Source of the DNA: a virus
Virus record (IMG/VR): IMGVR_UViG_3300027777_000028
Location: 34,377 to 98,376 of that record
Reading direction: 5' to 3' (one strand)
Length of the DNA: 64,000 bases
Under the pieces are notes generated by a model that saw only the letters and a list, made by a program, of their open reading frames with translations, was not told the DNA's origin and made no database searches. Below are positions 3,122 to 37,429 of this stretch, piece after piece. Each line of letters starts with the position of its first letter. The first letter of the stretch is position 1. Position numbers and translations under genes: made by a program.

Positions 3122-3123
3122 GG

Positions 3124-3158: not shown

Positions 3159-3169
3159 AAGAATACCAT

Positions 3170-3198: not shown

Positions 3199-3230
3199 TT
3201 TTACATATAAACTTTTAATTTTAATTTTAC

Positions 3231-10224: not shown

Positions 10225-10235
10225 TGATTTTTTTT
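10205..10235 (+). terminator. Intrinsic terminator
   Basis: AAAAATCACTAA-GAAA-TTAGTGATTTTT plus T-run. Confidence 0.8.
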
Positions 10236-10258
10236 ATATATCTAAACTATTTATTTGT

Positions 10259-11026: not shown

Positions 11027-11160
11027 AATCGGTTATTATAAATATAAATCATCGTCATAGGACAAAAAAAATATCCGATGTGTTTTTTCAAGATAGGTCG
11101 GGATTTTTTATTTAATGTAATTTTTACTTAAAAAAAACCTAACCTATATTTATATGTGAT

Positions 11161-11619: not shown

Positions 11620-11625
11620 TATTAT

Positions 11626-13542: not shown

Positions 13543-16500
13543 ATGGGTAAGTCGTATAGAATAAGAACTGAAGTTGGTGTAGACAAATACATAAATGTAA
13601 ATTTAGAACAAGATTGGGAATCTTTAGAGATATTGTCTTTAAAGATTTTGGCAAACGATGTGTATACTCGTTTTTGTTCTGACTATGGTGTTGTCACGGG
13701 TAGAGTTTTTGTAAACGGAGGATTTGGATTACCAAACGCTAAAGTCTCTGTTTTTATTCCGTTGGATGCTGCTGACGAATTAAACCCCGTAATCTCAGAA
13801 TTATATCCATATAAAACAATAACTGAAACCAACGCGGATGGTTATAGATATAATCTATTACCTAAATTACCTTCATATAACGGACACGTCTCGACAGGAT
13901 CATTTCCGAATAAGGGAGATGTTTTAATGGACGGATCGTATATTGAGGTATACGACAAATATTATAGGTTCACCGTAACAACAAATGAAAGTGGTGATTT
14001 TATGTTTTTTGGTGTTCCAGTTGGAACTCAAACAATCGTAATGGATGTTGATTTATCTGACATTGGTTGTTTTTCATTATCACCACAAGATCTAATACAA
14101 CAAGGATTAGCAACCGAAACTCAAGTTAATGGGGCCAAATTTAAATCATCAACAAACCTAAGAGAGTTACCACAAATTAAAAATTTAGTTTTTGACGTTG
14201 ATGTTCGACCATTTTGGGGTGATGCAGAACTTTGTCAAGTTGGAATAACACGAGTTGATTTTGATTTAACAAAACAAGCAAATATCAACATACAACCTAC
14301 GGCGATTTTTATGGGGTCGATTATCTCGACAACTGATGACGACGCTTTAAAGGTAAGTTGTAAACCAAAAAATAACACGGGTAATTTATGTGAATTAGTT
14401 GCAGGACCTGGTGAAATTCAAGCAATTAGACAAACCATATTTTCGGATGATAATGGACTTCCGATCTTAGAAAGATACCAAATAGAACAAGAAGGAAAGG
14501 TTATTGATGCTGACGGAACTTATTTATTAAATGTACCAATGAACCTTGATTATGTTTTTACCAATGAGTTCGGACAACAAGTAATATCTAATGATCCAAA
14601 AAAAGGAATACCAACAAAAGGGAAATATAGATTTAGGTTTAAGTGGCAAAACGAACAAGGACTTCAAGGAAGTTTTCAAAGAGCAAATTTTTTAGTTCCA
14701 AATATTAAAGAATATGGTTGGAATAACACATATAATTCATCAAACGACCCATTCACCAATTTATCACCAGGAACTTATACATATCCATCAATACCTGCTG
14801 GATCAATTACGGGTTTAACAGCAACAAATAATTTTGGTGTTAATTTAGGTCTGTCACAACCTACAACAAATAATGTTAGTTCATATTCAATTTATCTTAA
14901 TGGTCAATTGTATATTGGAAGTTTAAATTCAATACCTTTTAATATTGGTGATACGATACAAATTGTTGCAACTCCTGTTGATTCATCTCAACCTCAATCA
15001 ATCGTATTTACATCATATCAAGAGGAGTTATTTAATTTGTTAAGATCATACGCTTTTAGTACAGATTGGGATGATTATGCTAATGTACAAGAAGCTCTTA
15101 ACTGTGAAGACACATTTTATGAATTTCATTATAATAAGGTATATACCACCGCCATGTTTTTGGACCGATATAAAAAAGGTATTGGTAGAGCAAAACATTT
15201 AGGTATTAAAGAAATTGATAATAGATCTTGTAAATCAACCGTCAACACATTTCCAGTAAACGACATTATTAGAAATTTTGACGCAATATTTTTTGTTTTT
15301 AATATTCTTATAAACATTCTAACATTTCCAATTTTAACTCTTTTATTTGTTGCTCATTTTATTTCATTTTTATGGCCAATATTAAAGTATGTTCTTATTA
15401 TATTGGGTATTGTGTTGACAATACAGGCGGCCACTGATCTCCAAAATGTTTTTGAAAACACTTCTGAAGTTATAGAGGCAACACTAAGTGCGATAAGTGT
15501 TAATTTAGGAGGTCCTGTTGTAGATACTGGTGCGTTAATAAAGTCCGTTAGGTTACTTATAAAACAATTTATACTAATTGCAAAGGCAGCTTTTTCAGTA
15601 GTATTAGCAGCTTCGTTTACTGCATTTGCAATATTTGCCGCAGCAAAAATAAAAGGATTTCCAAGAATTGGATTACCAATGATTTCATATCCTGATTGTA
15701 CAAGTTGTGATTGTGACTGTAAAAATGCAGACATGAGTGATGATTTTGACTCAAATTCTGTTTACAATGAAATTAATACCGCAGCACAATCATCAGGTGG
15801 GGGAACAAACAATACTGTGTTGTCAACACCAAAAACATTGATTGCTCCTGTGAATTCTTCCGCGGCATATGCATTAGATCATCCAAATTTAAAAAATGAT
15901 CCAAATAATAATGACCCTTTTCCTCCTTGTAAATCATTAACAACTTTGATTGGTAACGGTGATATTACTATTGACGTTGTTGTTAAGGCTTCTTTAGATT
16001 ATATAAGAATTGCTTCTGGATCTGACGTTATTAGTTCAACAGACCCAAATAGGTATTTACCAAATGAAGCTTATTTATTAAAAGCACCACAACCATTTTT
16101 ATTTACCGCAGATAAAAATCCAGGGGCGGACGATAGATCTTTTGCATATCCTACTTCTGTGACATTTTCACAAAAATTAAATGAATTTAACACTAGAGAC
16201 AAATACTTCAAAAGTAGTACAACTTCAGCATTTGGTAGTGGTGTAAATAGGATTAAAACAGTTGTGAATCCAACATCAGGATCAACACCATATGAAGATC
16301 AGGTTATAGTTGTATTAATGAATCCTGGATCTACAGAATCATTAGGTGTTGGAAACGTAGTTACATTCCAAGATCCAAATTATATGGATTCAGGATCTAC
16401 TCTAAGAATGGTAAATTTGACGGGAGCAACAACAAACCAATTTCAAAATAACTCAATAACAGGAACGACATTAACAGGTCAAACATCTATATCAATAAAT

Positions 16501-19185
16501 TATGCAAACCCTAATAATCCTTTAGGATCATTGCCCGCCACGATCGTCATTAACTCACCACAAGTTAGTCAAAAGCCTGTAATTGGTAACCCCCAAGTTG
16601 AGCAGTCATACCTTCAATATCCCACAGATCTTGAGTACTTCCAATTAATAACAGGTGTGACTTATAGTGATTTTATTAATCAGTCAAATTATACAACTGC
16701 TTCAGGGTTTTTCCCCCAAGATTATTTACTACACGACATTAGTTATGTTGCCCCATGTGGTGCTAGTAAGACTCTTAATAATATAATTGGAGTAATGGAA
16801 AATTACCAAACCTATGAAATTTGTATTTTCGTAAGAGGTGTAGATCCGTTTACCGCAAAACAAACTATATCTTATGACTTATCTAAAATATTTGGTAAAT
16901 CTTATGGGAATATTTCAATACAAGGTGATTATTATTTAAATGTTCCAATACAACCATTACCCACATCATTAAAACCTACGACACATAACACAGTAAATAA
17001 TGGAAATCAAACATTATATTTCCCTTCATTTACTTTTACGCCTGATCCGACACAATATACCGCATTTACTTCTAACTTACCATATTATTATTTAAGTACT
17101 GATGATGTTTTATCTACGAACTATTCGCCATATCCAGGTCAATGGCAAACAAATCAACAAAGTACCACATCACTCCAACAAACAATTGCTAATGGACGCA
17201 ATATTCCAACATTAATACAACCTACATCCTTTTATACTGTCGGTGGGACATATTTAAGATGGGTAAATGATTTTCAGTCGACAAGTTTCTACATGCAAAC
17301 AGGAAACAATAATAGTAACCCACCTTGTAATCAAGATTGTCAAAAGGGTGAATATTTTAATACTGGTTCAACATTTTATACTTTTGTTAATAGTATGGGT
17401 AATTTATCAGCACTGTATTCTCCTGCATATTATAGATACGGATTGTCTCCAATATCATTTCCAACTGTAAATAGTAATCGTATTGTGATGAGATCTGATA
17501 GATTACCAACTTCATCAAACGTACAAAACGGACCATCAGGAACACAAACAGGATATGCTTTACATCAAAATGATAATTTTTCATTTTACACCCAAAATGG
17601 AAGTCAAAGTCAACCAACAATCAGTGCTGGTGGAGACTTGGTATCTGGTGAATCTCAAGATGACGATCCGGTTACATCAGGATTAACAGAAACACTAACT
17701 TGTGAAGGAATGGTTCCTTTGGCTTGTTATACAGGATCAGGAAGTAATGTTGGGGTAGTTCCTTCGGGACAATGTTCAGTACCCGAAAATAGAATGGTTA
17801 ACGGATGTTATTGTTTATTAAATTATATAGAAACAGATATTCCGGTCTTCAAAAAATTATATTTAATTCCAGAATACTTTAGAGATGCTAGATTGTTTTT
17901 AGAATGGAAAACAAGATTTACGATGAATTTTGCAGCTTGTAGAGGAGTTTTTGCTCAAGTTTTTCAAAACAATTGGGTAAACGGAGTTTTGTATATGTTT
18001 AATTTTAATAAAAGAACAACATTCAATATTTTAACACAACCAAATTATAATTATTGTGAAAATGTTATAGTTTTTAACGAACTTACAAATAATTTCTATT
18101 ATAGGTCTTCCCCTTGGAATGATACAATACAAGAATTTATTGGAAAAAATTCCCCTAGTTATAACTCACAAAGTTTTTTATCAAATTTTCCTGGATTTGG
18201 TTATAATGAAAAACAAATACAATTTCCAACAACCGTTGTTGACTTGGGGCCAAGAGATTATTTCATAAATGAAGTTTGTTGTTCTTCAGGTATTGATGGT
18301 TTTGGTTCTTATTATGCAAACCAATTAAAAGCAACGTCATACCAAGACAACTCTGACATTATACAACTTGGATTTCTTTCTAGAATACTTAATGATGGTG
18401 TTAGACAAAGAATGTTACCCATTCCAAGTGGGGATAATTCTACTGAAGGAAAAGGCATAATTCAATTTTTCAATAGCACACGAGGTGGATATAGAATTGA
18501 TGGTGATTGGGCTCAAATGTTATCAATAAATTCAGAATGGAAAGTTTTGCCGTTTATTACTGAAAACTTACCTCAGCCAAATCCAAATCAATATATTTTC
18601 TTTGGTGATAATGGGGCACCAAATGCTGACCTAATTAAACCTGTTATGGGATTATTTTTCCAAACTCCAACACCAAACTTAAGATATAGAAAAATAGAAT
18701 CACCTGGAATTGAAACCTATAATTTTACACCTTTAATTGAGGAAAAATTTGGGTATTCAAAATCACAAGTTGTTCCAAACTACAAGTGGTCTTTAAAAAA
18801 GAGTAGTCCATCATCAAACATATTTGGAACTGAAGATAATAACTGGTATACAAATACAATAGGTCCGGGAGGAGCAGGAGGCGTTGGAGGATTCTATAAG
18901 AAAAAATACCAAGATTTAGATTTTACAACGTTAAATGAAAAATATATTACAACAACCACTAAATTAGGTTATATTGCTAATTATGATATTAATGGAAATC
19001 CTGATCCACAACCACTTCCAAATACAATCATACAAGGACAACCTATTGGAGTTGCCAATCAACCAATAGGATTGAATCAAGCAATTATAGTAGGTGCTCC
19101 ATACCACTTCTATTTTGGGTTAAATAACGGAAAAACAGCCGTTGATAGATTTTATAAACTTTATGTTTCAACAGTAGAAGAATAA
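13543..19185 (+). CDS. Very large (1880 aa) baseplate/tail structural protein
   Basis: N-terminal carboxypeptidase-regulatory/CnaB-like segment (GRVF...PNAKVSVF...TTNESGDFMFFGVPVG), an internal hydrophobic block and many Cys clusters; lies in the baseplate operon. Confidence 0.7.
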   Translation: MGKSYRIRTEVGVDKYINVNLEQDWESLEILSLKILANDVYTRFCSDYGVVTGRVFVNGGFGLPNAKVSVFIPLDAADELNPVISELYPYKTITETNADGYRYNLLPKLPSYNGHVSTGSFPNKGDVLMDGSYIEVYDKYYRFTVTTNESGDFMFFGVPVGTQTIVMDVDLSDIGCFSLSPQDLIQQGLATETQVNGAKFKSSTNLRELPQIKNLVFDVDVRPFWGDAELCQVGITRVDFDLTKQANINIQPTAIFMGSIISTTDDDALKVSCKPKNNTGNLCELVAGPGEIQAIRQTIFSDDNGLPILERYQIEQEGKVIDADGTYLLNVPMNLDYVFTNEFGQQVISNDPKKGIPTKGKYRFRFKWQNEQGLQGSFQRANFLVPNIKEYGWNNTYNSSNDPFTNLSPGTYTYPSIPAGSITGLTATNNFGVNLGLSQPTTNNVSSYSIYLNGQLYIGSLNSIPFNIGDTIQIVATPVDSSQPQSIVFTSYQEELFNLLRSYAFSTDWDDYANVQEALNCEDTFYEFHYNKVYTTAMFLDRYKKGIGRAKHLGIKEIDNRSCKSTVNTFPVNDIIRNFDAIFFVFNILINILTFPILTLLFVAHFISFLWPILKYVLIILGIVLTIQAATDLQNVFENTSEVIEATLSAISVNLGGPVVDTGALIKSVRLLIKQFILIAKAAFSVVLAASFTAFAIFAAAKIKGFPRIGLPMISYPDCTSCDCDCKNADMSDDFDSNSVYNEINTAAQSSGGGTNNTVLSTPKTLIAPVNSSAAYALDHPNLKNDPNNNDPFPPCKSLTTLIGNGDITIDVVVKASLDYIRIASGSDVISSTDPNRYLPNEAYLLKAPQPFLFTADKNPGADDRSFAYPTSVTFSQKLNEFNTRDKYFKSSTTSAFGSGVNRIKTVVNPTSGSTPYEDQVIVVLMNPGSTESLGVGNVVTFQDPNYMDSGSTLRMVNLTGATTNQFQNNSITGTTLTGQTSISINYANPNNPLGSLPATIVINSPQVSQKPVIGNPQVEQSYLQYPTDLEYFQLITGVTYSDFINQSNYTTASGFFPQDYLLHDISYVAPCGASKTLNNIIGVMENYQTYEICIFVRGVDPFTAKQTISYDLSKIFGKSYGNISIQGDYYLNVPIQPLPTSLKPTTHNTVNNGNQTLYFPSFTFTPDPTQYTAFTSNLPYYYLSTDDVLSTNYSPYPGQWQTNQQSTTSLQQTIANGRNIPTLIQPTSFYTVGGTYLRWVNDFQSTSFYMQTGNNNSNPPCNQDCQKGEYFNTGSTFYTFVNSMGNLSALYSPAYYRYGLSPISFPTVNSNRIVMRSDRLPTSSNVQNGPSGTQTGYALHQNDNFSFYTQNGSQSQPTISAGGDLVSGESQDDDPVTSGLTETLTCEGMVPLACYTGSGSNVGVVPSGQCSVPENRMVNGCYCLLNYIETDIPVFKKLYLIPEYFRDARLFLEWKTRFTMNFAACRGVFAQVFQNNWVNGVLYMFNFNKRTTFNILTQPNYNYCENVIVFNELTNNFYYRSSPWNDTIQEFIGKNSPSYNSQSFLSNFPGFGYNEKQIQFPTTVVDLGPRDYFINEVCCSSGIDGFGSYYANQLKATSYQDNSDIIQLGFLSRILNDGVRQRMLPIPSGDNSTEGKGIIQFFNSTRGGYRIDGDWAQMLSINSEWKVLPFITENLPQPNPNQYIFFGDNGAPNADLIKPVMGLFFQTPTPNLRYRKIESPGIETYNFTPLIEEKFGYSKSQVVPNYKWSLKKSSPSSNIFGTEDNNWYTNTIGPGGAGGVGGFYKKKYQDLDFTTLNEKYITTTTKLGYIANYDINGNPDPQPLPNTIIQGQPIGVANQPIGLNQAIIVGAPYHFYFGLNNGKTAVDRFYKLYVSTVEE

Positions 19186-20984
19186 TGGTAGATCCGACAA
19201 CAAATATAATTTTATCGACCCAAAGATATAAGGGAGCACCAAAAACAGATCAGTTTATCAATGTTCCTTTCGCACAAACAAATAAAGAACTTATTGAATT
19301 TGATAGAAGCGTTGATTTAAATCTTGCAACCGTTTTTGATGAAGAAAGACAACAATCTACAATATTTAGACCTGTAACCAAGTATTCTGTCATATTTGAA
19401 AATGCTTATACAGGATCAACAACTTATGTTCCATTTAGAGATAATCTTTATTATACAAATGCTTTGTCAAACGCAATATCGTATTATCCTTCTGGAAATA
19501 ATCCATCAGTTCCACCACTTCCAACAAATCAAAATGTTGCTTGGGATGGATTTCCTCAATACCCCGAATTTGATTTTATAAGAACTGATAATGATGTTCT
19601 TGGATATACAATTGGAAACGGAAGACATTTGGATTTTAAATCAGTAAGTGCAACAACATACAATTGGTCTCATTATTTAAGTTATGTTTATCAAAATGAT
19701 TATAACAAAAATCTTTATGCGATTGAACCAAATACAAACATTTCTTGGAATTGGGTGGCTTCAGACGGACTTCCTTATTATGTAATTGTTGGTAGTGATC
19801 AAACAACAAGAGTTATTAGTTTTAAGTGTCCTGTTATGCATGGTTTATCTGTTGGAGAATCCGTTCAATTATCTACTAATTATAATGGAAATGAATTTTT
19901 TCAGGTAACCAGTTTGGGTGATCCTGCATCGGGATCGGATGAATACATTTTTAATATTAGAAACGTTGGTTATACAGGAAATACTTTTTTAACTTTTACA
20001 CAAGGGACATTCAAAAGGGTTATAAATGTTTCAAATTCTGCTGATACAATTAGCAAATATTATGTTAGAAAACATAAAATATTGACAAACCCCGAATGTG
20101 CGGTTTTGGTAAATGCGGGATTTGAACAAAATGTTTATAACAATAAAACCAAGTGTGAAGTAAAGGCATTAACACCAAATCAAAAACAACGAACATCTGT
20201 TAAAGAAGGTGCAAGATCATATACATTATCTTTTAATTGTGATGTGGATATTCTTGATTTATTGGATAACGAAAACAGACCTGTTAGTGAATTATTTTTT
20301 ACAACAGTTTGGAGAGGTTATTTTGGTTGGACACAAAAATTAAAACAAGGTTGGTATTTTAATACTTATTTGGATCAAACAAACCCACAAATTTGGTGGG
20401 ATCAAAATAATCCTGATTCTAATACAAGTATAATCCAAAATCAATATAATTCATTAGTGAATCAAGGTCCGTTTTTTTATAATGAACTATTAAACACAGG
20501 AGATACAATAGACGGAGATTATTGTGAATGGAATAATTTTGAACAACTTGAAAGAGTAATTTCATTATATCAACATAAAATAACATATAACGAAAATTGG
20601 TTTAGTTTGTCAGCAACCACGTTGACACCAAATAACCAATATGGTTATTTTTATCAACCACATAGCCCAATTCAGATCAGGGCTTTTTCTGACTATATTG
20701 AGGAAGGTAGTTCTTTGAATGTTGTTGGAATACCTGATTATGCTTATTACTCAACGATGAACGCACTATTTAGATGGAGAGATTTATATCCTTATGGGTT
20801 TATTGATACAGATGGTGTTGGGGTTGATTTTCCGTTTTTAAATAATTCTCATTATCCGTTTACAAACACAATATTTAGAGTTACACCCGAAAATTACAAT
20901 ATACCGAGTGATTATGCTCAAACTGGAGCAGTTCCTGTGAACATAACAACAATTGCAGACCCAACGGCCGATGAATGCGAATAG
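19185..20984 (+). CDS. Putative baseplate/tail structural protein (599 aa)
   Basis: Coupled to the previous gene; aromatic/beta-rich with an HGLSVGESV motif. Confidence 0.65.
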   Translation: MVDPTTNIILSTQRYKGAPKTDQFINVPFAQTNKELIEFDRSVDLNLATVFDEERQQSTIFRPVTKYSVIFENAYTGSTTYVPFRDNLYYTNALSNAISYYPSGNNPSVPPLPTNQNVAWDGFPQYPEFDFIRTDNDVLGYTIGNGRHLDFKSVSATTYNWSHYLSYVYQNDYNKNLYAIEPNTNISWNWVASDGLPYYVIVGSDQTTRVISFKCPVMHGLSVGESVQLSTNYNGNEFFQVTSLGDPASGSDEYIFNIRNVGYTGNTFLTFTQGTFKRVINVSNSADTISKYYVRKHKILTNPECAVLVNAGFEQNVYNNKTKCEVKALTPNQKQRTSVKEGARSYTLSFNCDVDILDLLDNENRPVSELFFTTVWRGYFGWTQKLKQGWYFNTYLDQTNPQIWWDQNNPDSNTSIIQNQYNSLVNQGPFFYNELLNTGDTIDGDYCEWNNFEQLERVISLYQHKITYNENWFSLSATTLTPNNQYGYFYQPHSPIQIRAFSDYIEEGSSLNVVGIPDYAYYSTMNALFRWRDLYPYGFIDTDGVGVDFPFLNNSHYPFTNTIFRVTPENYNIPSDYAQTGAVPVNITTIADPTADECE

Positions 20985-21777
20985 AATAAAAATAGTAAAA
21001 GACGATATAAATAAGTTTGTTAATATACCAATTAACATGCAATGGGATTTTATGGGTCGAGACGATAGTATTTCGGAATATGAAATCGATGCGATTAAAC
21101 AAGTTACAGGTGTAGCGGCAGATTTTGAAATCGCAAGATTTGCTCATAACGTATTTTACAATCAAGATTCTGCGATAAATTATGAATTTAACTTTTATGA
21201 TGATTCACAACCCATAACCGCAAATACAGTTGGAAACTGGTCTTCATCATATTTAAATAACGGATTTTCAGTTCAAGACATTTATTATTTTTCAAAACCT
21301 TTTACAAAGTCTTTTTTCAAACTTGATTTTTATGACACAAAAGAAGAAAAAACACAACAAATATATTTGTCAATTATTCTTCCCGTTCAACAAGGATTAA
21401 CACAAACCGCAGTTTTATCACCACTTGTCCCCCCAGTTGAAATTAAAAAACCAAAAATGGTGTTAGATTATATTGGGGCAGATAAAGAAGGGTTTTTTGT
21501 ATATTGGTTAAGAAGTAGAGATTTTATTGACATATCAACTTTTTTTATGACCGCCAAGTTTTTTGATGGAAGAGAAGGAGTTTTTAAACAAATGACAAAT
21601 ACAAGACAAGATTTAATCACACCTAATAAATTCCAATTCAACAATGAGGACTATTTTTATTATAAGGTGGATTTGGATTATAACAATAAAACTTACGAAG
21701 TGTTTTCGACATCAACAACTCTTAGGGTTGGAGATTCAAACTCACCGATAATTTGGTATGAATATGTTAACCCATAA
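20953..21777 (+). CDS. Putative structural protein (true start probably ATG at 20971)
   Basis: Overlapping, coupled ORF in the structural operon. Confidence 0.6.
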   Translation: MQTQRPMNANRIKIVKDDINKFVNIPINMQWDFMGRDDSISEYEIDAIKQVTGVAADFEIARFAHNVFYNQDSAINYEFNFYDDSQPITANTVGNWSSSYLNNGFSVQDIYYFSKPFTKSFFKLDFYDTKEEKTQQIYLSIILPVQQGLTQTAVLSPLVPPVEIKKPKMVLDYIGADKEGFFVYWLRSRDFIDISTFFMTAKFFDGREGVFKQMTNTRQDLITPNKFQFNNEDYFYYKVDLDYNNKTYEVFSTSTTLRVGDSNSPIIWYEYVNP

Positions 21778-22952
21778 TGGAATTACAAGAATATAAGTTT
21801 ATTGTTTCACCAGAAAATATCAAAAGTGATATTATTTTTGTTAATTATACAGGTGAAACAGATATTACAACAATTATTGATCCGTGTTGTTTAACGGCAA
21901 CAACCACAAGTGCGACAACAACAGGAACAACTGGTGTTTATCTTCCTATGTCGTATGTTTTAAGTGGAAACACAGGAGGAACTTCATTTTTAACAGGTTT
22001 ATCTGTTAACATATTGATAACAGAGTCTGCGGTTGATCTTGGATATTACACTCCCTTTGATGGTTTAATATTACAGGCCGACGTATTAAACAATTTTATT
22101 GTAACCGCAAACACAATAAATCCATATACTTACACATTTTATAATACGTCAGATTTAGAGTTTATTAAGTTTTTACAACTTGTTACATACACATTAGATT
22201 GGGGAGATGGATCACCACCACAGGCGGTTTTGGGAATAACACCTATTTTTCATACGTATCCTACGGCAGATAATAATTATACGATAACCTTGACTGCCAA
22301 CTCGCCTTGGGGAATATCAAAAGTTCAAAAACCGGTTTTAACACCATATAGTGCCGCTACAATACCAAACCCACAAGGATCAATAACTTTTTATCCTGCT
22401 GGTGGATCGTGGTCTGCTAACCCAATAAGTTATGACTATATCTTTACGGGAGATTCAAATACAAACATCAACGACTACTATTCATACAACTACACTTCAG
22501 TTCCTTTTTTAATTACAGGTTTTACAGAATCAACCTTAAATGATTTGGCACAATTTGGACCAAAAATTAATTTGGCAGGAGGAAAATATAAATTGGGAAT
22601 ACAAGTAACAGGAAACACAGGAGGTATTGGTACTTACTATGGGGTTGATCCAACGGGAACTTATAGCGCCTACACAATGAACGGAACGATTTATCACGAT
22701 TATGAAAATTTTACAATTTATTTTACAGACTCATACGGATTAGTTCCTGGTGAATTAGAATTATCAGCAATAACAAAAAATGAAGCACTATTGAATGTTA
22801 TTGACCAACCAGAAATTATAACTAATGTTTATATTGAAAGGGGGAAATACACACCTTTAGAAAATGTTATGAGATTAGGTGAGGTTGATAACATGGGTGA
22901 TTTAGAAAAATACGGATACAAATATTTTACAATAGAAAAAGTATCAACATAA
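21777..22952 (+). CDS. PKD-domain structural protein
   Basis: YTLDWGDGS...HTYP...NYTITLTA PKD signature; Thr-rich. Confidence 0.7.
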   Translation: MELQEYKFIVSPENIKSDIIFVNYTGETDITTIIDPCCLTATTTSATTTGTTGVYLPMSYVLSGNTGGTSFLTGLSVNILITESAVDLGYYTPFDGLILQADVLNNFIVTANTINPYTYTFYNTSDLEFIKFLQLVTYTLDWGDGSPPQAVLGITPIFHTYPTADNNYTITLTANSPWGISKVQKPVLTPYSAATIPNPQGSITFYPAGGSWSANPISYDYIFTGDSNTNINDYYSYNYTSVPFLITGFTESTLNDLAQFGPKINLAGGKYKLGIQVTGNTGGIGTYYGVDPTGTYSAYTMNGTIYHDYENFTIYFTDSYGLVPGELELSAITKNEALLNVIDQPEIITNVYIERGKYTPLENVMRLGEVDNMGDLEKYGYKYFTIEKVST

Positions 22953-22979
22953 CTATTTATAAAAAAGTAATATTAAAAT

Positions 22980-23885
22980 ATGGCAACGGGAAATTATGGC
23001 GTAATAAGACCTTCAGATGTTAGTCCTGAAGATGTACAAATCGTGTTAGTTTATACAGAATCAAGAGATGACACACAAAATTTTACATTAACAACTTTGA
23101 ACGCACAAGACGTTCTTAGACCTTATTTTAATAATAATGCCACGGGAGGAAGTTCAGTAGAAATACTTGGTGGTTTATATAATCTAAAATTACCAGCAGA
23201 CCAATTCAATAAATTGGGAATCTATACTTTGATGATTAGACCTGCAGAAATTAGAACAATAATTACTGATTGTGGTGTTTTATCTGCATTACCAAACGTT
23301 AAAGGAATTGTAATTGATTTGAATAATGTTCCGGCACAAAGTCGAAACAAATTTGTAAATCAAGGATTAGTTGGATTTAGAGTTGAATATTTAAATCCTG
23401 ATGGAACAAAAATACCAAACTTTTTTAGAATTATCACATCATCTTTTTATTGTGAACCTGTGGTTCAAAACCTAACAAACACAATTCAAAAATCTATTAG
23501 ATATAAATATGTTGAAGGAGCAACTAACTTGTTATTTTGCACATTGTCTCCGTCATCATCACCAACTAATAAACCAAGTGCGACCCCTTATATTGGACAA
23601 CCAAACCAAAGTATTATCATTACAAACACATACTTTAATCCAATAAGTACTGAGATTGAAATTGTTGACCAAGACATTTCAACACTTGCAATTGCTCTTT
23701 ACGGAAACCAAACTAAATCTATTGAGGATGGTATTTACACCATTTACGATGCTAATAACAATATATACAAACAATACAACTTGTATGAAATTAAAGATCA
23801 GTTTAACGCTCTTCTTTATGAAGTTAGACAAGATCGTGGCGAAAATATCGATTTCTCAAAGGCGTTTAATAATATAACAGCTTAA
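22980..23885 (+). CDS. Putative structural protein (301 aa)
   Basis: Preceded by TATTTAT and coupled to the next gene. Confidence 0.65.
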   Translation: MATGNYGVIRPSDVSPEDVQIVLVYTESRDDTQNFTLTTLNAQDVLRPYFNNNATGGSSVEILGGLYNLKLPADQFNKLGIYTLMIRPAEIRTIITDCGVLSALPNVKGIVIDLNNVPAQSRNKFVNQGLVGFRVEYLNPDGTKIPNFFRIITSSFYCEPVVQNLTNTIQKSIRYKYVEGATNLLFCTLSPSSSPTNKPSATPYIGQPNQSIIITNTYFNPISTEIEIVDQDISTLAIALYGNQTKSIEDGIYTIYDANNNIYKQYNLYEIKDQFNALLYEVRQDRGENIDFSKAFNNITA

Positions 23886-29058: not shown

Positions 29059-29061
29059 GTT

Positions 29062-29286
29062 ATGGCAAATCAAGTAACCATATATACCATTTCAGGTTTA
29101 ACAACCCCATTTAGTGGATATTGTTGTGATGTATATGGAAATCAATGTTCTTATATTGGAATAATTAGTAGTTTACCAACAACAATAACATTACCAATTC
29201 AATTCAACACAGCCCCTGCGATAGGATTAAAACTAATCAAAGATAATGGATGTGAAAGAATAGAAACAATTAACTGCACCTCATAA
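29062..29286 (+). CDS. Small Cys-containing protein, paralog of 37431-37649
   Basis: Shared pattern Q.TI..ISG..PF..Y.CD....C.YI...P....LP.........K..D/N..C. Confidence 0.7.
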   Translation: MANQVTIYTISGLTTPFSGYCCDVYGNQCSYIGIISSLPTTITLPIQFNTAPAIGLKLIKDNGCERIETINCTS

Positions 29287-29320
29287 TACACTTGTTTTAA
29301 GTTTTTCATATAATTAAAAT

Positions 29321-30301
29321 ATGAAAGAAATTTTATTTGTTTCGGCACAACCTGACGTTCCTTATTTCATTTGGCAAATTAAATTATACGTTAACAATTT
29401 TATTGAAAACGGAATCGACCCAAGTCAAATTCACGTTGTGTTAGGACTTGTTCAAGGAAAAACAAAACCATCAAAAGAATCTGAAGAGTTAAAAAACTTA
29501 AATATAAATATTCATTATTTTGTTGACGAAAGAATAAAAAAACATTACATCCCGTCAATAAAACCATATTTAATTTCAAAATGGATTCAATCAAATACAA
29601 AGTTTGGTGAATTATTCTTCTTACACGATGCAGATATTATTTTTAGAGAACTACCGAACTTTGATCGGTTGTTGAACGATGATGTGAATTATTTATCTGA
29701 AACGATTGGATATATTGGATATAATTATATTATGGATTGTTGTGATAGATATGAAAATCGTCATCCATCTTCAGAAAAAGGTCAATTGATAAAAGAAATG
29801 GCCGGAGTTATTGGTATTGATGTTGAAACAATAAAGTTAAACCAAGAAAATTCTGGTGGTGGTCAATACCTTATAAAAAACACAAGTTGTGAGTTGTGGG
29901 ATAAGATATATAAAGATTCAACCAAACTTTATGATAAAATGATATCATACCAAAGAAGATTTCCAATATCCCCTGGTGAGATACAATTTTGGACAGCAGA
30001 GATGTGGTCCGTTCTTTGGAATTTGTGGTTGTATAATCATCAAACAAAAATAACAAAAGAATTGGATTTTTCTTGGGCAACAGATTCAGTCGATGTGTAT
30101 AATTCTAAACCCATATTACATATGGCAGGAGTTACTGAAAACCTTAAAACTACAAAATTTTATAAAGGGGACTATATTAATATTGACCCAATAACAAAAC
30201 TTAAAGAAACTCCTAATCATTTTGACTATGTCGATGTTAAGAGTTCAACAATTAAATATATTGAGAATATGAAATCTTATATTAAAAAATACGATGTTTG
30301 A
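29321..30301 (+). CDS. GT-A fold glycosyltransferase resembling plant peptidyl-Ser galactosyltransferase / Hyp O-arabinosyltransferase (GT96/GT95-like)
   Basis: YIPSIKPYLISKW, DxD in FLHDADIIFR, WTAEMW, ILHMAG; no signal peptide. Confidence 0.65.
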   Translation: MKEILFVSAQPDVPYFIWQIKLYVNNFIENGIDPSQIHVVLGLVQGKTKPSKESEELKNLNINIHYFVDERIKKHYIPSIKPYLISKWIQSNTKFGELFFLHDADIIFRELPNFDRLLNDDVNYLSETIGYIGYNYIMDCCDRYENRHPSSEKGQLIKEMAGVIGIDVETIKLNQENSGGGQYLIKNTSCELWDKIYKDSTKLYDKMISYQRRFPISPGEIQFWTAEMWSVLWNLWLYNHQTKITKELDFSWATDSVDVYNSKPILHMAGVTENLKTTKFYKGDYINIDPITKLKETPNHFDYVDVKSSTIKYIENMKSYIKKYDV

Positions 30302-30318
30302 TTATTTATAATTATTAG

Positions 30319-32394
30319 ATGATTGAAAATTGCTACATATTATATTCTTGTGACGGAAGTTTTGAACCCATTGTTTCAAACTTTAGTGGGTTGAGCGCAT
30401 ACTCTGAAACTTTTGTTTCAATAGATATTTTAGATTTGGGAGAAACTCCCGATACTTGTTTTTATGTTTTAAGTTTGGGTGAGATGGAATGTTCCCCAAC
30501 TTATAACATAGATGTTAATACTGGAACAACTTGTGTTTGTCAGTGTTATTGTTATTTTATTAGATCGGCAACTCAGACAACAGATGTCACTTATGTTGAT
30601 TGTAATAACACCATAGTTGTGGACACGATTCAAGAAGGGCAAACATATAATATTTGTAGTAAAGTATTTCCACAATTTGACACAGAAACTCAAATACCAA
30701 TTAAATTAACTGATATTTGTCAAAACAATCAGTGTCCACCAACAATACCAACAGTAAAACCACCAAATGAATGTGATGTTATTACTATTTTCCCAATGAC
30801 AATTGAATGTTTAACTTTACAGCCAACAAATGATAAGAGTTTTGATGGATCAACAACTTTGATTGTAACAGGAGGAACACCACCATACACAATTTTTTGG
30901 GAAGTTGGTAGTTTTGCTCCCGCTCTTACAAATTTAGGTGTAGGACAATATAAAGCAACAGTAACAGATTATTATGGTGATTTTACTGCCACCACAACAT
31001 GCGTGTTAACAGCGGACACATTAACATTGTCTGGTATGTGTTTTGCTGTTAGTGGAGTTTCAAATCAAACGACTTTTTATGTTTATAGTGAAAGTTCTGG
31101 TTTAAAAAATGGAAAACCATATTATAAAATTCAATACGGTGTTGAAACCATTGGATATGTTTTTTGGAGTTCAGAATTAAACTATTGGTCTTTTTGTCAA
31201 ACTTTGGAATGTCAAAATATATCAAACTATAACGATTTGATGACAACAACATTTTATCCGTCAGGAGAAACTGGAGATTGGGATTATATTTCTGACTCAC
31301 CATATTATTTATTACAATCTTATGTTGGACCATGTCAAATTCCAACAATACCAAAGGATTTAACTAGTTTATGTGTTACTTTAGTTGTTAGAAGCCCAAA
31401 ACCAGGAGTTGCAACACAAAGTCAACAAATACAATTAGATCCAAGCAACGACGTAAACGGACAACCAAGTTGGTCGTCATCAACAGGACAATACGTTATT
31501 TATTGGAACACAGGATCAACACCTAATCAATGGACGATGACGGGTTATTCAAGTCCTTACGTTAGTTTAATTAATAATGACCCCACATCACCCCCATTAA
31601 GTAATTGGCAAGTTCAAGGATCTCCTGAAGTGTTTAGTATGGCCGTGGCTCAAGGTGAATGTTTGACAAGTTATACAATAAGTGTAAGCGCTTCAGTAAA
31701 TGACGCCGCTTGCGAACAACAAGGAAGTATTACGGTTTCTGCCGTTGGGGGAGTTGCTCCTTACCAATATTCAATTGATGGGGGAGCGTCATACCAATCG
31801 TCACCAATTTTTAATAATTTAAGTCCTGGTATTTATTCAGTTTTTGTAAAAGATACTCAAACAACGGTAGGGTCTTTAACATCAATTCAAGTGAATAATA
31901 TTCTTCCGACAACATATACATTATTATTAAATGTAAACTATGGTAATGGAACTTTTTCAATAACAGCACCTGTTCTTCCAAATGGAGTTACAATTTCTTT
32001 GAATTTAACAATGACATCAACTTTTAGTTATTACCCAAGTACTTTAAGTCCGGCACCGACATATAATAATATAACAACAATAAATGGAACGACACCAATG
32101 ACGTTAACAAATACGACTTCAAGTACAGTTCCACTAACAGGTCCTTGTACTACTGATCTTCCAGTAACTGTGGTACAGACAAGTAAAACATATACAAATA
32201 CTTTAACTTTTACTAGCGGTCAAGTTATTACAGGTTCAACAACTTCAAGTATTATAAATAACCCAACAGGTTTTTGTGAAAAAGCAATAGGGTCATATAA
32301 TCTTTATATGTCAAGTCCTGTTGTGAATAATTGTGAATGTTGTCAAGTTATTTTAAATAACCCAAAATTAAATCCTGTACCACCAATAGTATAA
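30319..32394 (+). CDS. Cys/Thr-rich tail appendage protein with SprB-like repeats
   Basis: TGGTPPYTIFW...LTNLGVGQYKATVTD and GGVAPYQYSIDGG..YQSSPIFNNLSPGIYSVFVKD. Confidence 0.7.
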   Translation: MIENCYILYSCDGSFEPIVSNFSGLSAYSETFVSIDILDLGETPDTCFYVLSLGEMECSPTYNIDVNTGTTCVCQCYCYFIRSATQTTDVTYVDCNNTIVVDTIQEGQTYNICSKVFPQFDTETQIPIKLTDICQNNQCPPTIPTVKPPNECDVITIFPMTIECLTLQPTNDKSFDGSTTLIVTGGTPPYTIFWEVGSFAPALTNLGVGQYKATVTDYYGDFTATTTCVLTADTLTLSGMCFAVSGVSNQTTFYVYSESSGLKNGKPYYKIQYGVETIGYVFWSSELNYWSFCQTLECQNISNYNDLMTTTFYPSGETGDWDYISDSPYYLLQSYVGPCQIPTIPKDLTSLCVTLVVRSPKPGVATQSQQIQLDPSNDVNGQPSWSSSTGQYVIYWNTGSTPNQWTMTGYSSPYVSLINNDPTSPPLSNWQVQGSPEVFSMAVAQGECLTSYTISVSASVNDAACEQQGSITVSAVGGVAPYQYSIDGGASYQSSPIFNNLSPGIYSVFVKDTQTTVGSLTSIQVNNILPTTYTLLLNVNYGNGTFSITAPVLPNGVTISLNLTMTSTFSYYPSTLSPAPTYNNITTINGTTPMTLTNTTSSTVPLTGPCTTDLPVTVVQTSKTYTNTLTFTSGQVITGSTTSSIINNPTGFCEKAIGSYNLYMSSPVVNNCECCQVILNNPKLNPVPPIV

Positions 32395-32422
32395 AATAAT
32401 AAAAACAATATTTATCATATAA

Positions 32423-34921
32423 ATGGCTTATATAATTAAAAATACATCAGGTCTGGTAAATACCCGAGTTACTGACACGGGAAGACAAAGATTGTCTGAA
32501 GGTAGATTCAATATCGCTTATTTTGCTATCGGTGATAGTGAGATTTCATACAATCAATTACCTGAGACATATAATCAATCCAATACCGTTGTATTAGAAC
32601 CCCAATTTAATGCTCAAAATAGTTCAGGTGTTCCAGAATCAAATAGACAATATATTAAATACCCATATTTGGTAGATCAAGGACAAACAAATATTTATGG
32701 TATTCCTTTTATGGATTCACAAATCGAATCCGTATTTAATAGGGCCGCGATGAGGGGATTTTTCACAGGAAACACAACCGCTTCCACCGTTGATTGGAAA
32801 GCGTTGGTGAACAATCAATATGTTGTTACACCAAACTATGTTGTAAATATGTCTACTTTGAACGGAACTAACGAAATAAATGTTTATAGATTAGATTGTA
32901 ATGTTCAAAATAATAACACACCACAAATAGGTGATTTTATTACAATTTATTATGATGGGAGAGCAAAAACGGATTGTTCTTGTTCTAATTTTCCTACTCC
33001 AACACCAAGTGCTTCTGTAGGTCAAACACCGACACCAACTCCTACGCCATCATCAACAAATAGTGAACCTTGTTCGTCACCAACACCAACTCCTTCACCA
33101 ACACATACTCCTTGTTTAACACCAACACCAAGTGCTCAATGTCCATTACCACCACCACCTGATTGTTTAAAAGATGTCGTTAGTTGTTTTTCAATTTTAA
33201 CATATAGAATTATTTCGGTGTGTGAAAACAAATTAACATTAGATAGACCAACACCTGATTTTACAAACTTGGCGAGTGATTGTATTGCAAGAACATTAAT
33301 TTATCCACCACAGATGGTTCCGTTATATGATAGTTTTACACCTGAACCACACTGGGCACAAAGTGTTATTGATTTTGAATCAGTTTGTGATACAGATCAA
33401 TTTGATGTAAAAATTTGGAATATGAATATTCCGTGGACTGAAAGTCCGGCTGGTTTAATATCAAATCAGTTCCAAGATTATACGAATTTTGGATCTATAA
33501 ATTATATAGGACAAAAAGAATATTTTGGTTATACAACAAACGCTCAAACATCAACTGATGATGTTTATTATTACAACTCATTTGGTGAAAAACAAGTTGT
33601 AACACCTACAAATCAAAAAGCGATAGCGATTATTCACTACACAAATCAAACAATTGATTTCTTTTATGGTGAAAAGTTTGCTTTACAACCATACGATAGT
33701 CAAAACCCTGAAAATACGCAAGGACAAGCAAGAAACTTCAAATTACATATTCCAACTTTAATGTGGCATAAAAATCCTGAATGTTGTTTTGGTCAAACAT
33801 TTTATGTTGATCCTCCAGGATTTGATGGAAAAAACTTATTTCAAGTTCAATATACAAAATCAAACGTGTCAAATAATATGAACCAACCTGGTTTGAGATA
33901 TTATAACTTATGGGATACATTCGCACAACCAAACGGACTTCCAAGTAGAATAGGAAAAGTTTATCCTGATTCAAAATTAATTATTATTGATGATGAAGAA
34001 ATTGTTGCGGCACTTTCATATAAGTCAAATAGAAATTGGACTTTACCGGCACCTCAAGTTTCTTTATTAACACCAAATACTTGTGGAACATCAAACACTA
34101 CAGGAGTTTTAACTGGCGGTGGTGAAACTTTGTGGGTTACATATAGGTTATCAAATTCATATTTCTTTACCAATTCACTTCATTGTAATTATTACACAAG
34201 TGTTGTGGGAACAGAAAATGTTTGTACACCCGATACACCAAAAAATGTTGCCGTTAGATTCGGAGGAGATTTTCCTTGTTTAGTTCAACCTGGATATTCA
34301 CCAACAACAACAACTACCACTTATTTTCCAAATACAACAACCACAACAACAATAAATCCATATACAACTACTACAACAACATTATGTCCTACTTGTGTTG
34401 TACCAGCAGGGTTTTACTCTAATCAATTTCAGGTATTGGCACAAAAAGTTCCTGTGGGTCAAAGACCTGTTGCGGATAACTGGAAATTAATTGATTTCAC
34501 AGAACAAGCAAGTCAATTTTTTGTAAATGGATATGTAACACAAGAATCACTAACAGCCACCACATTTACTATTACGGCAGAAAATTATTCATCAGCACCA
34601 TATTATAATTTGAATGATTATGTTTCTTTAGTTCCAAAAGGGGACACAGGACCAAACCTTAATTTTGGTGATGAATATTATTTTTATGGTAATTTAGAAA
34701 CTGACATCCAAGCGACAATCTACGAAATGAAGTATAAGATTAATTTATCTTCAAATGAGTTTTTGGTTTCTCAAAACCCAACATGGACTTTTGGTACAAA
34801 ATCATATGTTACTGAAATCGCACTTTTGGATGCTAATGATGATATTCTTGTTATGTCAAAATTACAATCACCTGTGTTAAGACAAGGGATACAACAATAT
34901 GTAATAAAGTTGGATTTTTAA
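32423..34921 (+). CDS. Baseplate / tail-fibre attachment protein with PT-repeat and poly-Thr inserts
   Basis: N-terminal VTDTGRQRL..G.FNIAYFAIGDSE, C-terminal YVTEIALLD...MSKLQSPV, and PTPTPS and TTTTTT inserts. Confidence 0.65.
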   Translation: MAYIIKNTSGLVNTRVTDTGRQRLSEGRFNIAYFAIGDSEISYNQLPETYNQSNTVVLEPQFNAQNSSGVPESNRQYIKYPYLVDQGQTNIYGIPFMDSQIESVFNRAAMRGFFTGNTTASTVDWKALVNNQYVVTPNYVVNMSTLNGTNEINVYRLDCNVQNNNTPQIGDFITIYYDGRAKTDCSCSNFPTPTPSASVGQTPTPTPTPSSTNSEPCSSPTPTPSPTHTPCLTPTPSAQCPLPPPPDCLKDVVSCFSILTYRIISVCENKLTLDRPTPDFTNLASDCIARTLIYPPQMVPLYDSFTPEPHWAQSVIDFESVCDTDQFDVKIWNMNIPWTESPAGLISNQFQDYTNFGSINYIGQKEYFGYTTNAQTSTDDVYYYNSFGEKQVVTPTNQKAIAIIHYTNQTIDFFYGEKFALQPYDSQNPENTQGQARNFKLHIPTLMWHKNPECCFGQTFYVDPPGFDGKNLFQVQYTKSNVSNNMNQPGLRYYNLWDTFAQPNGLPSRIGKVYPDSKLIIIDDEEIVAALSYKSNRNWTLPAPQVSLLTPNTCGTSNTTGVLTGGGETLWVTYRLSNSYFFTNSLHCNYYTSVVGTENVCTPDTPKNVAVRFGGDFPCLVQPGYSPTTTTTTYFPNTTTTTTINPYTTTTTTLCPTCVVPAGFYSNQFQVLAQKVPVGQRPVADNWKLIDFTEQASQFFVNGYVTQESLTATTFTITAENYSSAPYYNLNDYVSLVPKGDTGPNLNFGDEYYFYGNLETDIQATIYEMKYKINLSSNEFLVSQNPTWTFGTKSYVTEIALLDANDDILVMSKLQSPVLRQGIQQYVIKLDF

Positions 34922-34976
34922 AAAAACTTTAATTTTTATTATTATACCTTATTATATTAAAATATAACAATATTTT

Positions 34977-35582: not shown

Positions 35583-35605
35583 TATCTTTTACATATTATT
35601 ATTTG

Positions 35606-35637
35606 AAATATCGGTTTTTTAGCCGATATTTTTTTTT
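35606..35637. terminator. Intrinsic terminator between convergent genes
   Basis: AAATATCGG...CCGATATTT stem with T-run. Confidence 0.75.
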
Positions 35638-37429
35638 AACACACAGTACCTAATTGTGTAATTTGGATGTTTTGTGGGTTATTAGTTGTTGGTGTTACAT
35701 TAGAACAAACAATAACCGAACTATTACCCCCCAATGACTCAGATACAGAGTTTGAAATACAATTGCTATATTTGATTGTAATTTTTGATGGACTTAAATT
35801 CGTGACACGATATTGATATTGAACACAAGGTGATGGACTTGGAGTTGGAGTTGGTGTCATAGATGGTGTAGGACAAGGAACTTCCAATGCCGTAGTATAG
35901 AAACCAGAACTACTATTGATACAAGTTTCATAAATAGAATTATCAACCCATTCCATAGTTGAACCAATCGGAAGTTCGGTGTCTAAATATAAGAACGATC
36001 CTGCAACATTTGTTCCATAATTTTCAGCAACCCATCTTACGTTCAAGTTATCCCAATATATTCTATATACCGTTGGATTTGATACATAACTCCAAATATA
36101 AGATAATTTACCGTTTATAAATCCATTTGGAGTTACATTAGTTGTACCACATTCTCCATGAATAACCAAACATTGTGTTACAGGTTCTTGAGGTGATGGT
36201 GTACATTTTAAACAAGAACCATCCAAAGTAGAACCGACTTCATTTGTTAAAGTAATATTATCAACTCCACTTATATTTTCAAATAATCCTTCATAGATTA
36301 CACAATAATTCATTCCGTTAATTATTGCGTTATACACATAATTTTCTTTTGGTGATGTTGATCCAGAAACCAATACAAGATCTGACGTAAAGTATTCAAT
36401 ACCTGTAAAGCAATCACGGAATTTTTTACTATTAGCACATTGTATAATTTCAGAAAACGTATTAAACACAACTTCACCCGAAAAATTACAAGGTCTATCA
36501 ACTTCTGGTGTTGGTGTAGGTGTTGGTGTAAAAGACGGAGTAGGTGTTGGTGTGACCCCTAATGAAGTAACCGCCATTGATACACCACCACATATGTTTG
36601 AAGTCGTTGGAGTTGGTGTGGGGGTTGGTGTTTTTGTAGGAGTTGGGCTAAAACTTGGTGTTGGTGGAATATAACAATCAAAAATTGCTTCAAAATCAAA
36701 ATCAACACAAGGGTTTGTAGTGGTTGTTGTAGTTGTACAAGGCCCAAAATAAACAACACTATCATCAAAATCGGGACAAGTTGAAACACTACCATAAGGA
36801 CCAAATTGATTACAAGGGTCTCCTATGTTTTGTGCTAAACACCATCTTGTTTCACCTGTTGAATAAAATATAAAATATCCGTTTGTTTGACCTGTATAAT
36901 ATGTATATGAACCATACATACCACTATATTGATATGTGTCATCATAGATATTATCGTTCTTAACACAAAAAATTCCAGGACAAGTACAAGTAGAAATTGA
37001 TAATATAGTTCCCGATGAATCAACTTCATAAATTGTAAGACCATCTGAATAAAAAGTATTTGTGGATGGTGTAGTACAACCTGAGTCGATATATACGACA
37101 TTTCCCACAAGTAATCCAGGTCCCCACAAATCAAAAATCAAAGGAGAAATACAAGATAAATTAGGATCTGAAGCGGATGCGAAAGTCCCCAAGAAATTAC
37201 AAGCACATGCAATAATTTCGATAATTTTACCTGATGAATTTGTTGTGTATAAATTAGATCCGTCACTTAAATACGAAGTGCTATATGGTATGGTACATCC
37301 AGAATCGGTATAAAGGAAGTCAAGTAAATCTACACCATCCCCATAAACAGGAGCTGTAAGTGCTGAAAAACACAACGAATAATTTGGACTAGTGTCCACC
37401 GCAAATAAACCTAAATTATTACAAGCCAT
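35636..37429 (-). CDS. Cys-rich PT-repeat protein, putative virion appendage
   Basis: Two tandem ~75-aa N-terminal repeats (CN.LG.FA...Y.DSGCT.P...SDG..Y...SSG.I...C), three PTPTPT blocks and a poly-Thr run. Confidence 0.75.
   Translation of the reverse strand: MACNNLGLFAVDTSPNYSLCFSALTAPVYGDGVDLLDFLYTDSGCTIPYSTSYLSDGSNLYTTNSSGKIIEIIACACNFLGTFASASDPNLSCISPLIFDLWGPGLLVGNVVYIDSGCTTPSTNTFYSDGLTIYEVDSSGTILSISTCTCPGIFCVKNDNIYDDTYQYSGMYGSYTYYTGQTNGYFIFYSTGETRWCLAQNIGDPCNQFGPYGSVSTCPDFDDSVVYFGPCTTTTTTTNPCVDFDFEAIFDCYIPPTPSFSPTPTKTPTPTPTPTTSNICGGVSMAVTSLGVTPTPTPSFTPTPTPTPEVDRPCNFSGEVVFNTFSEIIQCANSKKFRDCFTGIEYFTSDLVLVSGSTSPKENYVYNAIINGMNYCVIYEGLFENISGVDNITLTNEVGSTLDGSCLKCTPSPQEPVTQCLVIHGECGTTNVTPNGFINGKLSYIWSYVSNPTVYRIYWDNLNVRWVAENYGTNVAGSFLYLDTELPIGSTMEWVDNSIYETCINSSSGFYTTALEVPCPTPSMTPTPTPSPSPCVQYQYRVTNLSPSKITIKYSNCISNSVSESLGGNSSVIVCSNVTPTTNNPQNIQITQLGTVC

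Follow-up and report, generated by a model that had tools for sequence, protein, structure and literature searches.

Why does one short peptide pattern, [ST]-[GA]-x-T, keep returning in the tail proteins of an uncultivated phage? The pattern recurs along a 64,000-nucleotide stretch of the IMG/VR record IMGVR_UViG_3300027777_000028 (positions 34,377 to 98,376; the whole stretch is called the window below), and a preliminary description of this DNA read it as a candidate modification sequon, built up by convergence in unrelated proteins as acceptor sites for a phage-encoded enzyme such as the glycosyltransferase (GT) encoded at position 29321. Our analysis leads to a different reading, to which we give a probability of about 0.6: in its fuller form, hydrophobic-[ST]-[GA]-x-T, the motif would be a conserved structural element of beta-rich outer virion domains and not a set of acquired modification sites. 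The GT would belong to a separate phage glycosylation system, acting on poly-Thr and Pro-Thr tracts of neighbouring fibre proteins.

The source is a freshwater jumbo phage with a low guanine–cytosine content (about 31%) and a myovirus-type gene content in which Baseplate_J and a tail sheath were found. The record as a whole is 98,376 bp long (CheckV completeness 34%), and the window covers its 3' 64 kb; a relative at 94% identity is available as a 272,576-bp record that is 93% complete. Orthologues of two window genes, 21777 and 29321 (genes are named by their lower coordinate in the window), occur on 92 and 215 IMG/VR contigs, respectively, and proteins similar to the product of 26872 number more than 2,000; the family to which the phage belongs is uncultivated and abundant. 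Comparison with cultured phages revealed no close relative, and a near-DNA search of a phage collection gave no match. The nearest homologues of the baseplate proteins are in Flavobacterium phages, which, together with the SprB repeats described below, suggests a Bacteroidota host. Large freshwater phages of a similar kind, with several glycosyltransferases among their core genes, have been described in the 'moraphage' paper (PMC12619734).

An order-specific excess in outer virion proteins

Expected counts were obtained for each protein from 1000 whole-protein shuffles and from shuffles within blocks of 60, 30 and 15 residues. Ten tail proteins together hold 72 copies of [ST][GA]xT where 18–21 are expected, with the same result under each block size. 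Because the excess persists under 15-residue block shuffles, composition, local composition included, is not its cause. The preliminary description had proposed this composition-preserving check and had named compositional bias as the obvious alternative; the counts lie far above expectation (72 against about 20 even in the smallest blocks), and that alternative loses its footing.

The excess depends on the order of the residues. The motif stands at 3.9 times expectation (z 13), G and A at position 2 each reach about 3.9 times, and a hydrophobic residue at position −1 lifts the ratio to 7.4, whereas order variants used as controls stay near 1 ([ST][GA]xS 1.09, [ST]x[GA]T 1.27 and [ST]GxxT 1.0). 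An unbiased scan of all a-b-x-c patterns placed T-G-x-T first (35 observed against 6.9 expected) and S-A-x-T third, the sole competitor being a pattern from Pro-Thr linkers. A cause at the DNA level was considered and rejected: Ser at position 1 is encoded by AGY in 8 of 28 cases, which is the background rate, and the signal lies at the protein level because Ser and other codons follow background. The preliminary description had also set the motif apart from the Bacteroidota O-glycosylation sequon, and correctly so. The presumed host phylum is the same, but that sequon, D-(S/T)-(A/I/L/V/M/T), is unenriched in these proteins (17 against 25.5 expected, 0.67 times). It is used in the periplasm, a compartment that phage virion proteins are not known to reach.

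The genes concerned are listed below, with the number of motif sites observed and expected in their amino acid (aa) sequences.

13543..19185, + strand: 1880-aa tail/baseplate-distal protein with no Pfam or PHROG family; 10 sites against 3.05
19185..20984, + strand: 599-aa tail protein of no known family; 6 sites against 0.85
21777..22952, + strand: 391-aa tail protein with a weak PKD match; 12 sites against 1.42
23885..26872, + strand: 995-aa tail protein, an internal negative example; 1 site against 1.55
26872..29058, + strand: 728-aa fibre protein with seven tandem SprB-type immunoglobulin (Ig)-like units; 26 sites against 5.04
29062..29286, + strand: small open reading frame (ORF) of 74 aa; one site, ISGLT
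30319..32394, + strand: 691-aa fibre protein with two SprB-type units; 7 sites against 2.25
32423..34921, + strand: 832-aa fibre protein with Pro-Thr linkers and three T6 tracts; 3 sites against 1.84
35636..37429, − strand: 597-aa fibre-like protein with a T7 tract and long Pro-Thr linkers; 6 sites against 1.93

Six window proteins are enriched (13543, 19185, 21777, 26872, 30319 and 35636). The claim that the motif recurs across the tail proteins holds for these six but not for 23885, 32423, 20953 (1 against 0.18) and 22980 (0), which are not enriched relative to shuffles; the orthologues of 32423, taken as a group, do carry the motif at 2.7 times expectation, though the window copy does not. 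The roughly 40 remaining window proteins, replication and core baseplate proteins included, have 0–1 motif each and lie at expectation, which bears out the scarcity reported by eye for core subunits and replication enzymes. The example peptides all lie in the genes to which they had been assigned, among them ISGLT in 29062–29286.

Six of the ten sites in 13543 fall at residues 912–1037 (clustering p=0.002), and four of the 12 in 21777 lie in a Thr-rich stretch at residues 40–52. In 26872, a protein with 16% T, 14% S and 10% G, the repeat units occupy residues 13–569 and are followed by a C-terminal domain common to 23885; a few of its matches fall in a Thr-rich run at residues 423–430. Three further enriched proteins are encoded outside the window on the same record, one of them a protein with an LCIB-type carbonic-anhydrase domain. 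This 358-aa protein (Pfam LCIB_C_CA, E 6e-29; beta-carbonic-anhydrase type) lies upstream of the window at record positions 2260–3336, has 6 sites against 1.17 expected and is flanked by genes that are both enriched, one of them with a match to a PHROG tail protein.

Hidden homology was rejected as the source of the excess. Together, blastp and hhalign join only 26872 with 30319 (98% in hhalign), the C-terminal domains of 23885 and 26872 (94%) and, by a linker match alone, 32423 with 35636. Using hhalign, we found no link among 13543, 19185 and 21777 or between any of these and the SprB proteins, and no common module was seen by eye in the motif-dense segments. Because so few of the enriched proteins are joined by hhalign, at least four independent protein families carry the excess; the carriers, earlier called non-homologous, are mostly so, with the three linked pairs as exceptions.

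Fixed sites and immunoglobulin-like repeats

Across orthologues, the sites stay in place. Those of 21777 at residues 63, 110, 247, 297 and 330 are kept in 91–100% of 64 orthologues, with substitutions running between T and S at position 1 and between G and A at position 2, and with the position-4 Thr nearly invariant. Compared with the same residue types elsewhere, the position-4 Thr of the motif is identical more often (0.81 versus 0.59) and position 1 more often stays in class (0.86 versus 0.69). In 19185, four of the six sites are kept in at least 80% of orthologues and the family-wide motif ratio is 6.5, and site retention in 13543 is 0.69 across 43 orthologues.

In the orthologue alignments of six proteins, we counted the columns occupied by the motif and by four independent control patterns of identical composition. 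Columns in which the motif reaches a frequency of at least 50% number 51, against 10, 9, 7 and 4 for the controls. Sporadic columns, with a frequency below 20%, number 132, against 133, 133, 135 and 98. Because the sporadic columns equal the controls, new sites arise at a neutral rate and nothing is accumulating. In these alignments, the whole excess is the legacy of old sites under purifying selection. The motif would sit in all-beta, outward-facing virion domains and be held there by such selection, most likely as a strand end leading into a tight turn, after which the Thr begins the next strand.

In 26872 and 30319 the sites coincide with a known repeat. Both proteins match Pfam SprB (PF13573; 28.2 and 37.5 bits, respectively, at a gathering cut-off of 28), a result confirmed on the genome, and contain tandem units of about 60–80 aa, seven in the former and two in the latter, with the consensus C..G-S-I...[ST]-G-G-T-x-P-Y...L-x-x-G-x-Y-x-V-T-D..G-C. 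The motif occupies the [ST]GGTxPY column in five of the seven units of 26872. A protein homology search with 26872 returned only orthologues from the phage family; cellular proteins were reached instead by a unit-profile search of a representative library, which detected 58,745 proteins, the top 150 being giant proteins with 28–87 units each. The cellular consensus drawn from 6,505 SprB-type units of these 150 proteins reads S36/T29 - G89 - G93 - T60 - x - P69 - Y79 ... W81 in its first part and L86 - x - A64 - G91 - T42 - Y91 - x - V - T - V - T - D96 in its second. Cellular units, where no phage GT is present, likewise favour Thr over Ser at position 4 (T60 versus S7) and have the same S/T degeneracy at position 1. 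Because 6,505 cellular units show them, [ST]GGT and [ST]AGT are ancestral consensus positions, and the sites of 26872 and 30319 would have been inherited with the ancestral repeat consensus ..G-S-I-x-V-x-V-[ST]-G-G-T-x-P-Y..L-x-A-G-T-Y...

The best match of the unit in the PDB is the Ig domain of a phage decoration protein, 5lxk, reading ...TATGGTGPYTYAW...AGSYKVTVTDSK; in this solved structure, from an unrelated phage, TGGTGPYTYAW stands at the equivalent column. RemZ, a neck-whisker protein and T4 Hoc are the next matches. The units of 26872 and 30319 are alike in consensus to the SprB repeat, 5lxk and T4 Hoc (3shs), with the TGGT column as in the cellular units and 5lxk. They differ from cellular SprB repeats in density, with about 2.4 motif matches per unit compared with about 1 per detected cellular unit (counted over whole proteins), the extra sites lying at T-i-T-G-L-T and S-A-T-T positions. 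Over the giant cellular proteins the motif reaches 1.46 times expectation and its hydrophobic-prefixed form 2.6 times, with [ST][GA]xS at 0.91; a Flavobacterium phage that lacks the GT gives 1.5, 2.3 and, for the Ser variant, 0.59 in its tail module. Ig-rich surface proteins in general, then, show a bias of like shape but lower strength, and the source phage family shows it more strongly. No SprB homology is detectable by hhalign in 13543, 19185 and 21777, though they are enriched; in these and a few head proteins the motif would occupy fixed positions of unrelated domains.

A glycosyltransferase gene and poly-threonine tracts

The GT gene and the tracts considered here as its possible targets are the following.

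29321..30301, + strand: predicted 326-aa glycosyltransferase with a GT8-type retaining GT-A fold; zero motif sites; core gene of the family
34304..34381, + strand: three T6 tracts of 32423, 10 residues apart; candidate GT acceptors
36503..36736, − strand: T7 tract (residues 232–238) and Pro-Thr linkers (residues 255–309) of 35636; candidate acceptors

The earlier assignment of 29321 as a glycosyltransferase is upheld by structure prediction. The AlphaFold2 (AF2) model built from 46 orthologues has a predicted local distance difference test score (pLDDT) of 92.9 and was matched by Foldseek to GT8/GT24 enzymes with a probability of 1.0. In VIA comparisons the model aligns with glycogenin at Z 16.1 (root-mean-square deviation 3.5 Å over 227 residues) and, at Z 13–15, with LgtC (14.3), GlyE (13.6), the UGGT catalytic domain and the Skp1 alpha-galactosyltransferase. 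The modelled structure thus supports a GT8-type retaining GT-A glycosyltransferase at the fold level. With the GT8 enzymes glycogenin, LgtC and GlyE it shares the GT-A fold (Z 13.6–16.1) at 7–12% identity. In the alignment of the 46 orthologues, a DxD-like HDAD after a beta strand (H102-D-A-D105) and a C-terminal H-x-x-G (H267-M-A-G270) are invariant, and these are candidates for the DxD metal/nucleotide-sugar motif and the C-terminal His of GT8 enzymes. GlyE, from the pneumococcal serine-rich-repeat adhesin pathway, acts on a Ser-rich-repeat protein, a target conceptually like poly-Thr tracts. Sequence searches with 29321 found no Pfam family at E≤0.1 (GT8 included), no NCBIfam family and no PDB match; the protein belongs with phrog_4417 (E 4.5e-65), a family of unknown function. 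HPAT (PF23452), the model for plant-type peptidyl O-glycosyltransferases of GT95/GT96, was absent from the Pfam scan; in genome searches, models of HPAT and DUF7164 (PF23741) gave no match, an uninformative result as the genome-search controls were likewise blank, and the presence of HPAT on 10% of the members of one neighbouring cluster in the atlas is a lead only.

The GT belongs to the core gene set of the phage family, and in a clade at 45% identity it is found elsewhere, at 66% identity. No GT-less relatives were found in the family, apparent absences being windows that end too early; because the gene is present even in the 45%-identity clade, there is no natural knockout. The interval between 26872 and the GT (29058–29321) is a hypervariable cassette site across relatives, which carry at this position a conserved ORF of about 98 aa and one unrelated ORF of 100–983 aa; this variability suggests the swapping of a receptor-binding module.

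Homologues of 29321 at 31–36% identity occur in 77 cultured phages, and in the two GT-bearing phages tested the motif does not co-occur with the GT across independent lineages. The GT of Chryseobacterium phage MA9V-3 lies amid large structural-looking ORFs whose motif counts equal expectation, and that of Enterococcus phage phiFL1A directly follows the major tail protein, the structural proteins having 11 motif sites against 9.5 expected. Proteins with poly-Thr tracts, by contrast, adjoin the GT in all six cultured GT-homologue phages examined. Only two ORFs of phiFL1A bear tracts, those of the major capsid protein and the major tail protein, each with poly-T at its C-terminus. Tracts are found in gp8 and the capsid protein of Lactobacillus phage iLp84, in gp18 of Clostridium phage phiCTP1, in the major tail protein and an overlapping ORF of Staphylococcus phage SA2, in orf68 of Lactobacillus phage LpeD, and in two ORFs of MA9V-3, one of them directly upstream of the GT. 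Such tracts are rare in the 272-kb relative (three of 299 ORFs, two of them less than 8 kb from the GT), and the immuto and T4 regions contain none. They are present in 45 of 51 orthologues of 32423, 26 of 43 of 35636 and 23 of 56 of 30319.

The poly-Thr/Pro-Thr tracts of the adjacent fibre proteins are, on this evidence, the most probable acceptors of 29321, and virion glycosylation by the phage is plausible. To go by gene content, the phrog_4417 GT and the tract proteins together look like a widespread module for mucin-like virion O-glycosylation; a literature search for phage poly-threonine and glycosyltransferase found no description of one. A parallel exists in mycobacteriophages, where, as summarized in PMC12619734, virion glycans are carried by the C-termini of capsid and tail-tube subunits and added by phage GTs (Freeman et al. 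2023). The systems are alike in having a phage GT within or near the structural genes, and the poly-Thr ends of capsid and tail-tube proteins in phages with 29321 homologues (phiFL1A, iLp84, SA2 and phiCTP1) recall the C-terminal glycans. The systems differ in that the hosts here are Bacteroidota or Firmicutes and the glycosylation is a predicted one.

Other features of the record were noted in passing. Two motif-free genes, at 22980–23885 and 34977–35582, belong to no known family and are the most conserved of the fibre operon (87% and 84% mean identity, respectively); their products may be assembly chaperones or adaptors. The proteins encoded at 41634–42437 and 50767–52092 have a short repeated segment in common (52–79% identity over 28–57 aa in blastp). 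Upstream of the window, a 714-aa ORF at record positions 10052–12196 (− strand) includes a complete Fe/Mn superoxide dismutase (Sod_Fe_N and Sod_Fe_C) amid other domains, and a 715-aa protein at record positions 59–2206, with an Asn-rich degenerate repeat of the n-n-x-i-g-x-x-f type at residues ~230–640, is probably a beta-solenoid fibre.

Structural element or modification site

Several observations weigh against a purely structural role for the motif. We infer the turn geometry: the AF2 prediction for 21777, for which 46 orthologues were used, reached a pLDDT of 44.5, too low for the sites to be mapped on it. The periodicity of the flanks is ambiguous and weakly hairpin-like (hydrophobic residues at −1 in 59% of sites and, for A-type sites, 59% at +4 and 52% at +6) and shows no clear pattern around G-type sites. 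A generic bias of beta proteins is insufficient, because the ratios of 3.9 and 7.4 exceed those of cellular SprB proteins and because T4 long tail fibres have no enrichment (11 against 8.9), and it does not fully explain recurrence in at least four unrelated families. A modification site under conservation would likewise be expected to appear as a fixed, conserved position. In the 272-kb relative, moreover, the nine enriched ORFs are mainly outer virion proteins, four of them tail proteins of the fibre operon; the capsid sites lie in the gp23-type insertion region; and the genome has in total about nine GT genes and a GDP-sugar pathway.

The genome of this relative gives the widest view of the motif. 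One of its enriched ORFs, 2,349 aa in length, weakly matches a PHROG tail protein and has nine of its ten sites within 250 residues. In the gp23-type capsid protein, all five sites fall at residues 192–364, N-terminal to the best Pfam gp23 stretch (381–620). The other enriched ORFs include two unannotated proteins near the capsid gene and one two-domain GT2 enzyme. Directly upstream of the head genes, at about 155–171 kb (L182:3284-19487), lies a glycan cluster with at least eight GT genes: GT1-like (weak, below cut-off), GT2/GT92-like, GT2x2, GT4, GT2, GT11, GT10 and another GT2, of which GT10 and GT11 are fucosyltransferase families. Its other genes encode a GDP-mannose 4,6-dehydratase (E 4e-114), a DegT aminotransferase, a hexapeptide acyltransferase and an FkbM methyltransferase, with dUTPase, exonuclease and PhoH interspersed. 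Because of this large glycan-synthesis cluster, phage-directed glycosylation of something is likely; the cluster keeps a sequon interpretation alive and does not single out [ST][GA]xT.

The best of the alternatives, which we nevertheless regard as unlikely, is that [ST][GA]xT is an O-glycosylation sequon on exposed turns, read by 29321 or another phage GT, with the glycans conserved for shielding or adhesion. Its appeal lies in an order-specific excess that tolerates S or T at position 1 and G or A at position 2 and is strict for T at position 4, in the confinement of that excess to nine of 299 ORFs of the relative, most of which encode outer virion proteins (tail fibres and the capsid insertion region among them), and in the position of a GT8-type GT within the fibre operon, as part of the family's core gene set; the relative's glycan cluster and the unenriched T4 fibres agree with it. 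Newly gained sites, however, are not in excess, and cellular SprB repeats have this motif as their consensus, as does the 5lxk decoration domain of an unrelated phage. The two tested phages with GT homologues are unenriched, their GT being paired with poly-Thr tracts instead. A free cytoplasmic enzyme with a linear sequon should select for depletion among cytoplasmic phage proteins, yet these are undepleted (89 sites against 81 expected in 290 of the 299 ORFs of the relative), and a GT2 enzyme, itself cytoplasmic, is among the nine enriched ORFs. Virion proteins without enrichment include 23885, 22980, baseplate J and the sheath. The convergent accumulation of acceptor sites put forward in the preliminary description founders on three of these results: sporadic columns that equal controls, an ancestral SprB consensus and GT-bearing phages without enrichment.

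A related and equally doubtful proposal would give the phage-made glycans two kinds of acceptor, the poly-Thr/Pro-Thr tracts on the one hand and Thr/Ser residues exposed on hydrophobic-[ST]-[GA]-x-T turns on the other. The tetrapeptide would then be a structure-dependent O-glycosylation sequon common to capsid, head-associated and fibre proteins, a role to which we attach the same low likelihood.

Somewhat less likely still is a functional surface or assembly element, either a turn that binds a ligand or glycan or a recognition site for a fibre chaperone, convergent in the outer virion proteins. The conserved positions in unrelated proteins and the clustering of sites in certain segments of the largest proteins would suit such a role, as would the conserved motif-free genes 22980 and 34977 (84–87% identity), possible chaperones in the same operon. 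The motif is also found in cellular SprB repeats and 5lxk, however, which have other partners, and four residues are too few for a binding site. Least credible is a compositional or low-complexity artefact of proteins rich in T, S and G, a few matches in Thr-rich runs (21777, 26872) notwithstanding, as it is ruled out by the block shuffles, by identical-composition patterns that are not enriched and by 23885 and 32423, which are similar in composition and show no enrichment.

If the motif is indeed structural, it would serve to recognise decoration domains that are Ig-like or otherwise beta-rich, and the idea of a sequon should not spread. The by-product of this analysis, the GT and its poly-Thr partners, may matter more than the motif itself. 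Members of phrog_4417 lie beside capsid, tail-tube or fibre proteins with poly-Thr tails in phages of Enterococcus, Lactobacillus, Staphylococcus, Clostridium and Chryseobacterium as well as in the jumbo-phage family studied here. Mucin-like glycosylation of virions outside the actinobacteriophages is now directly testable, and it would affect phage adsorption, stability and immune recognition.

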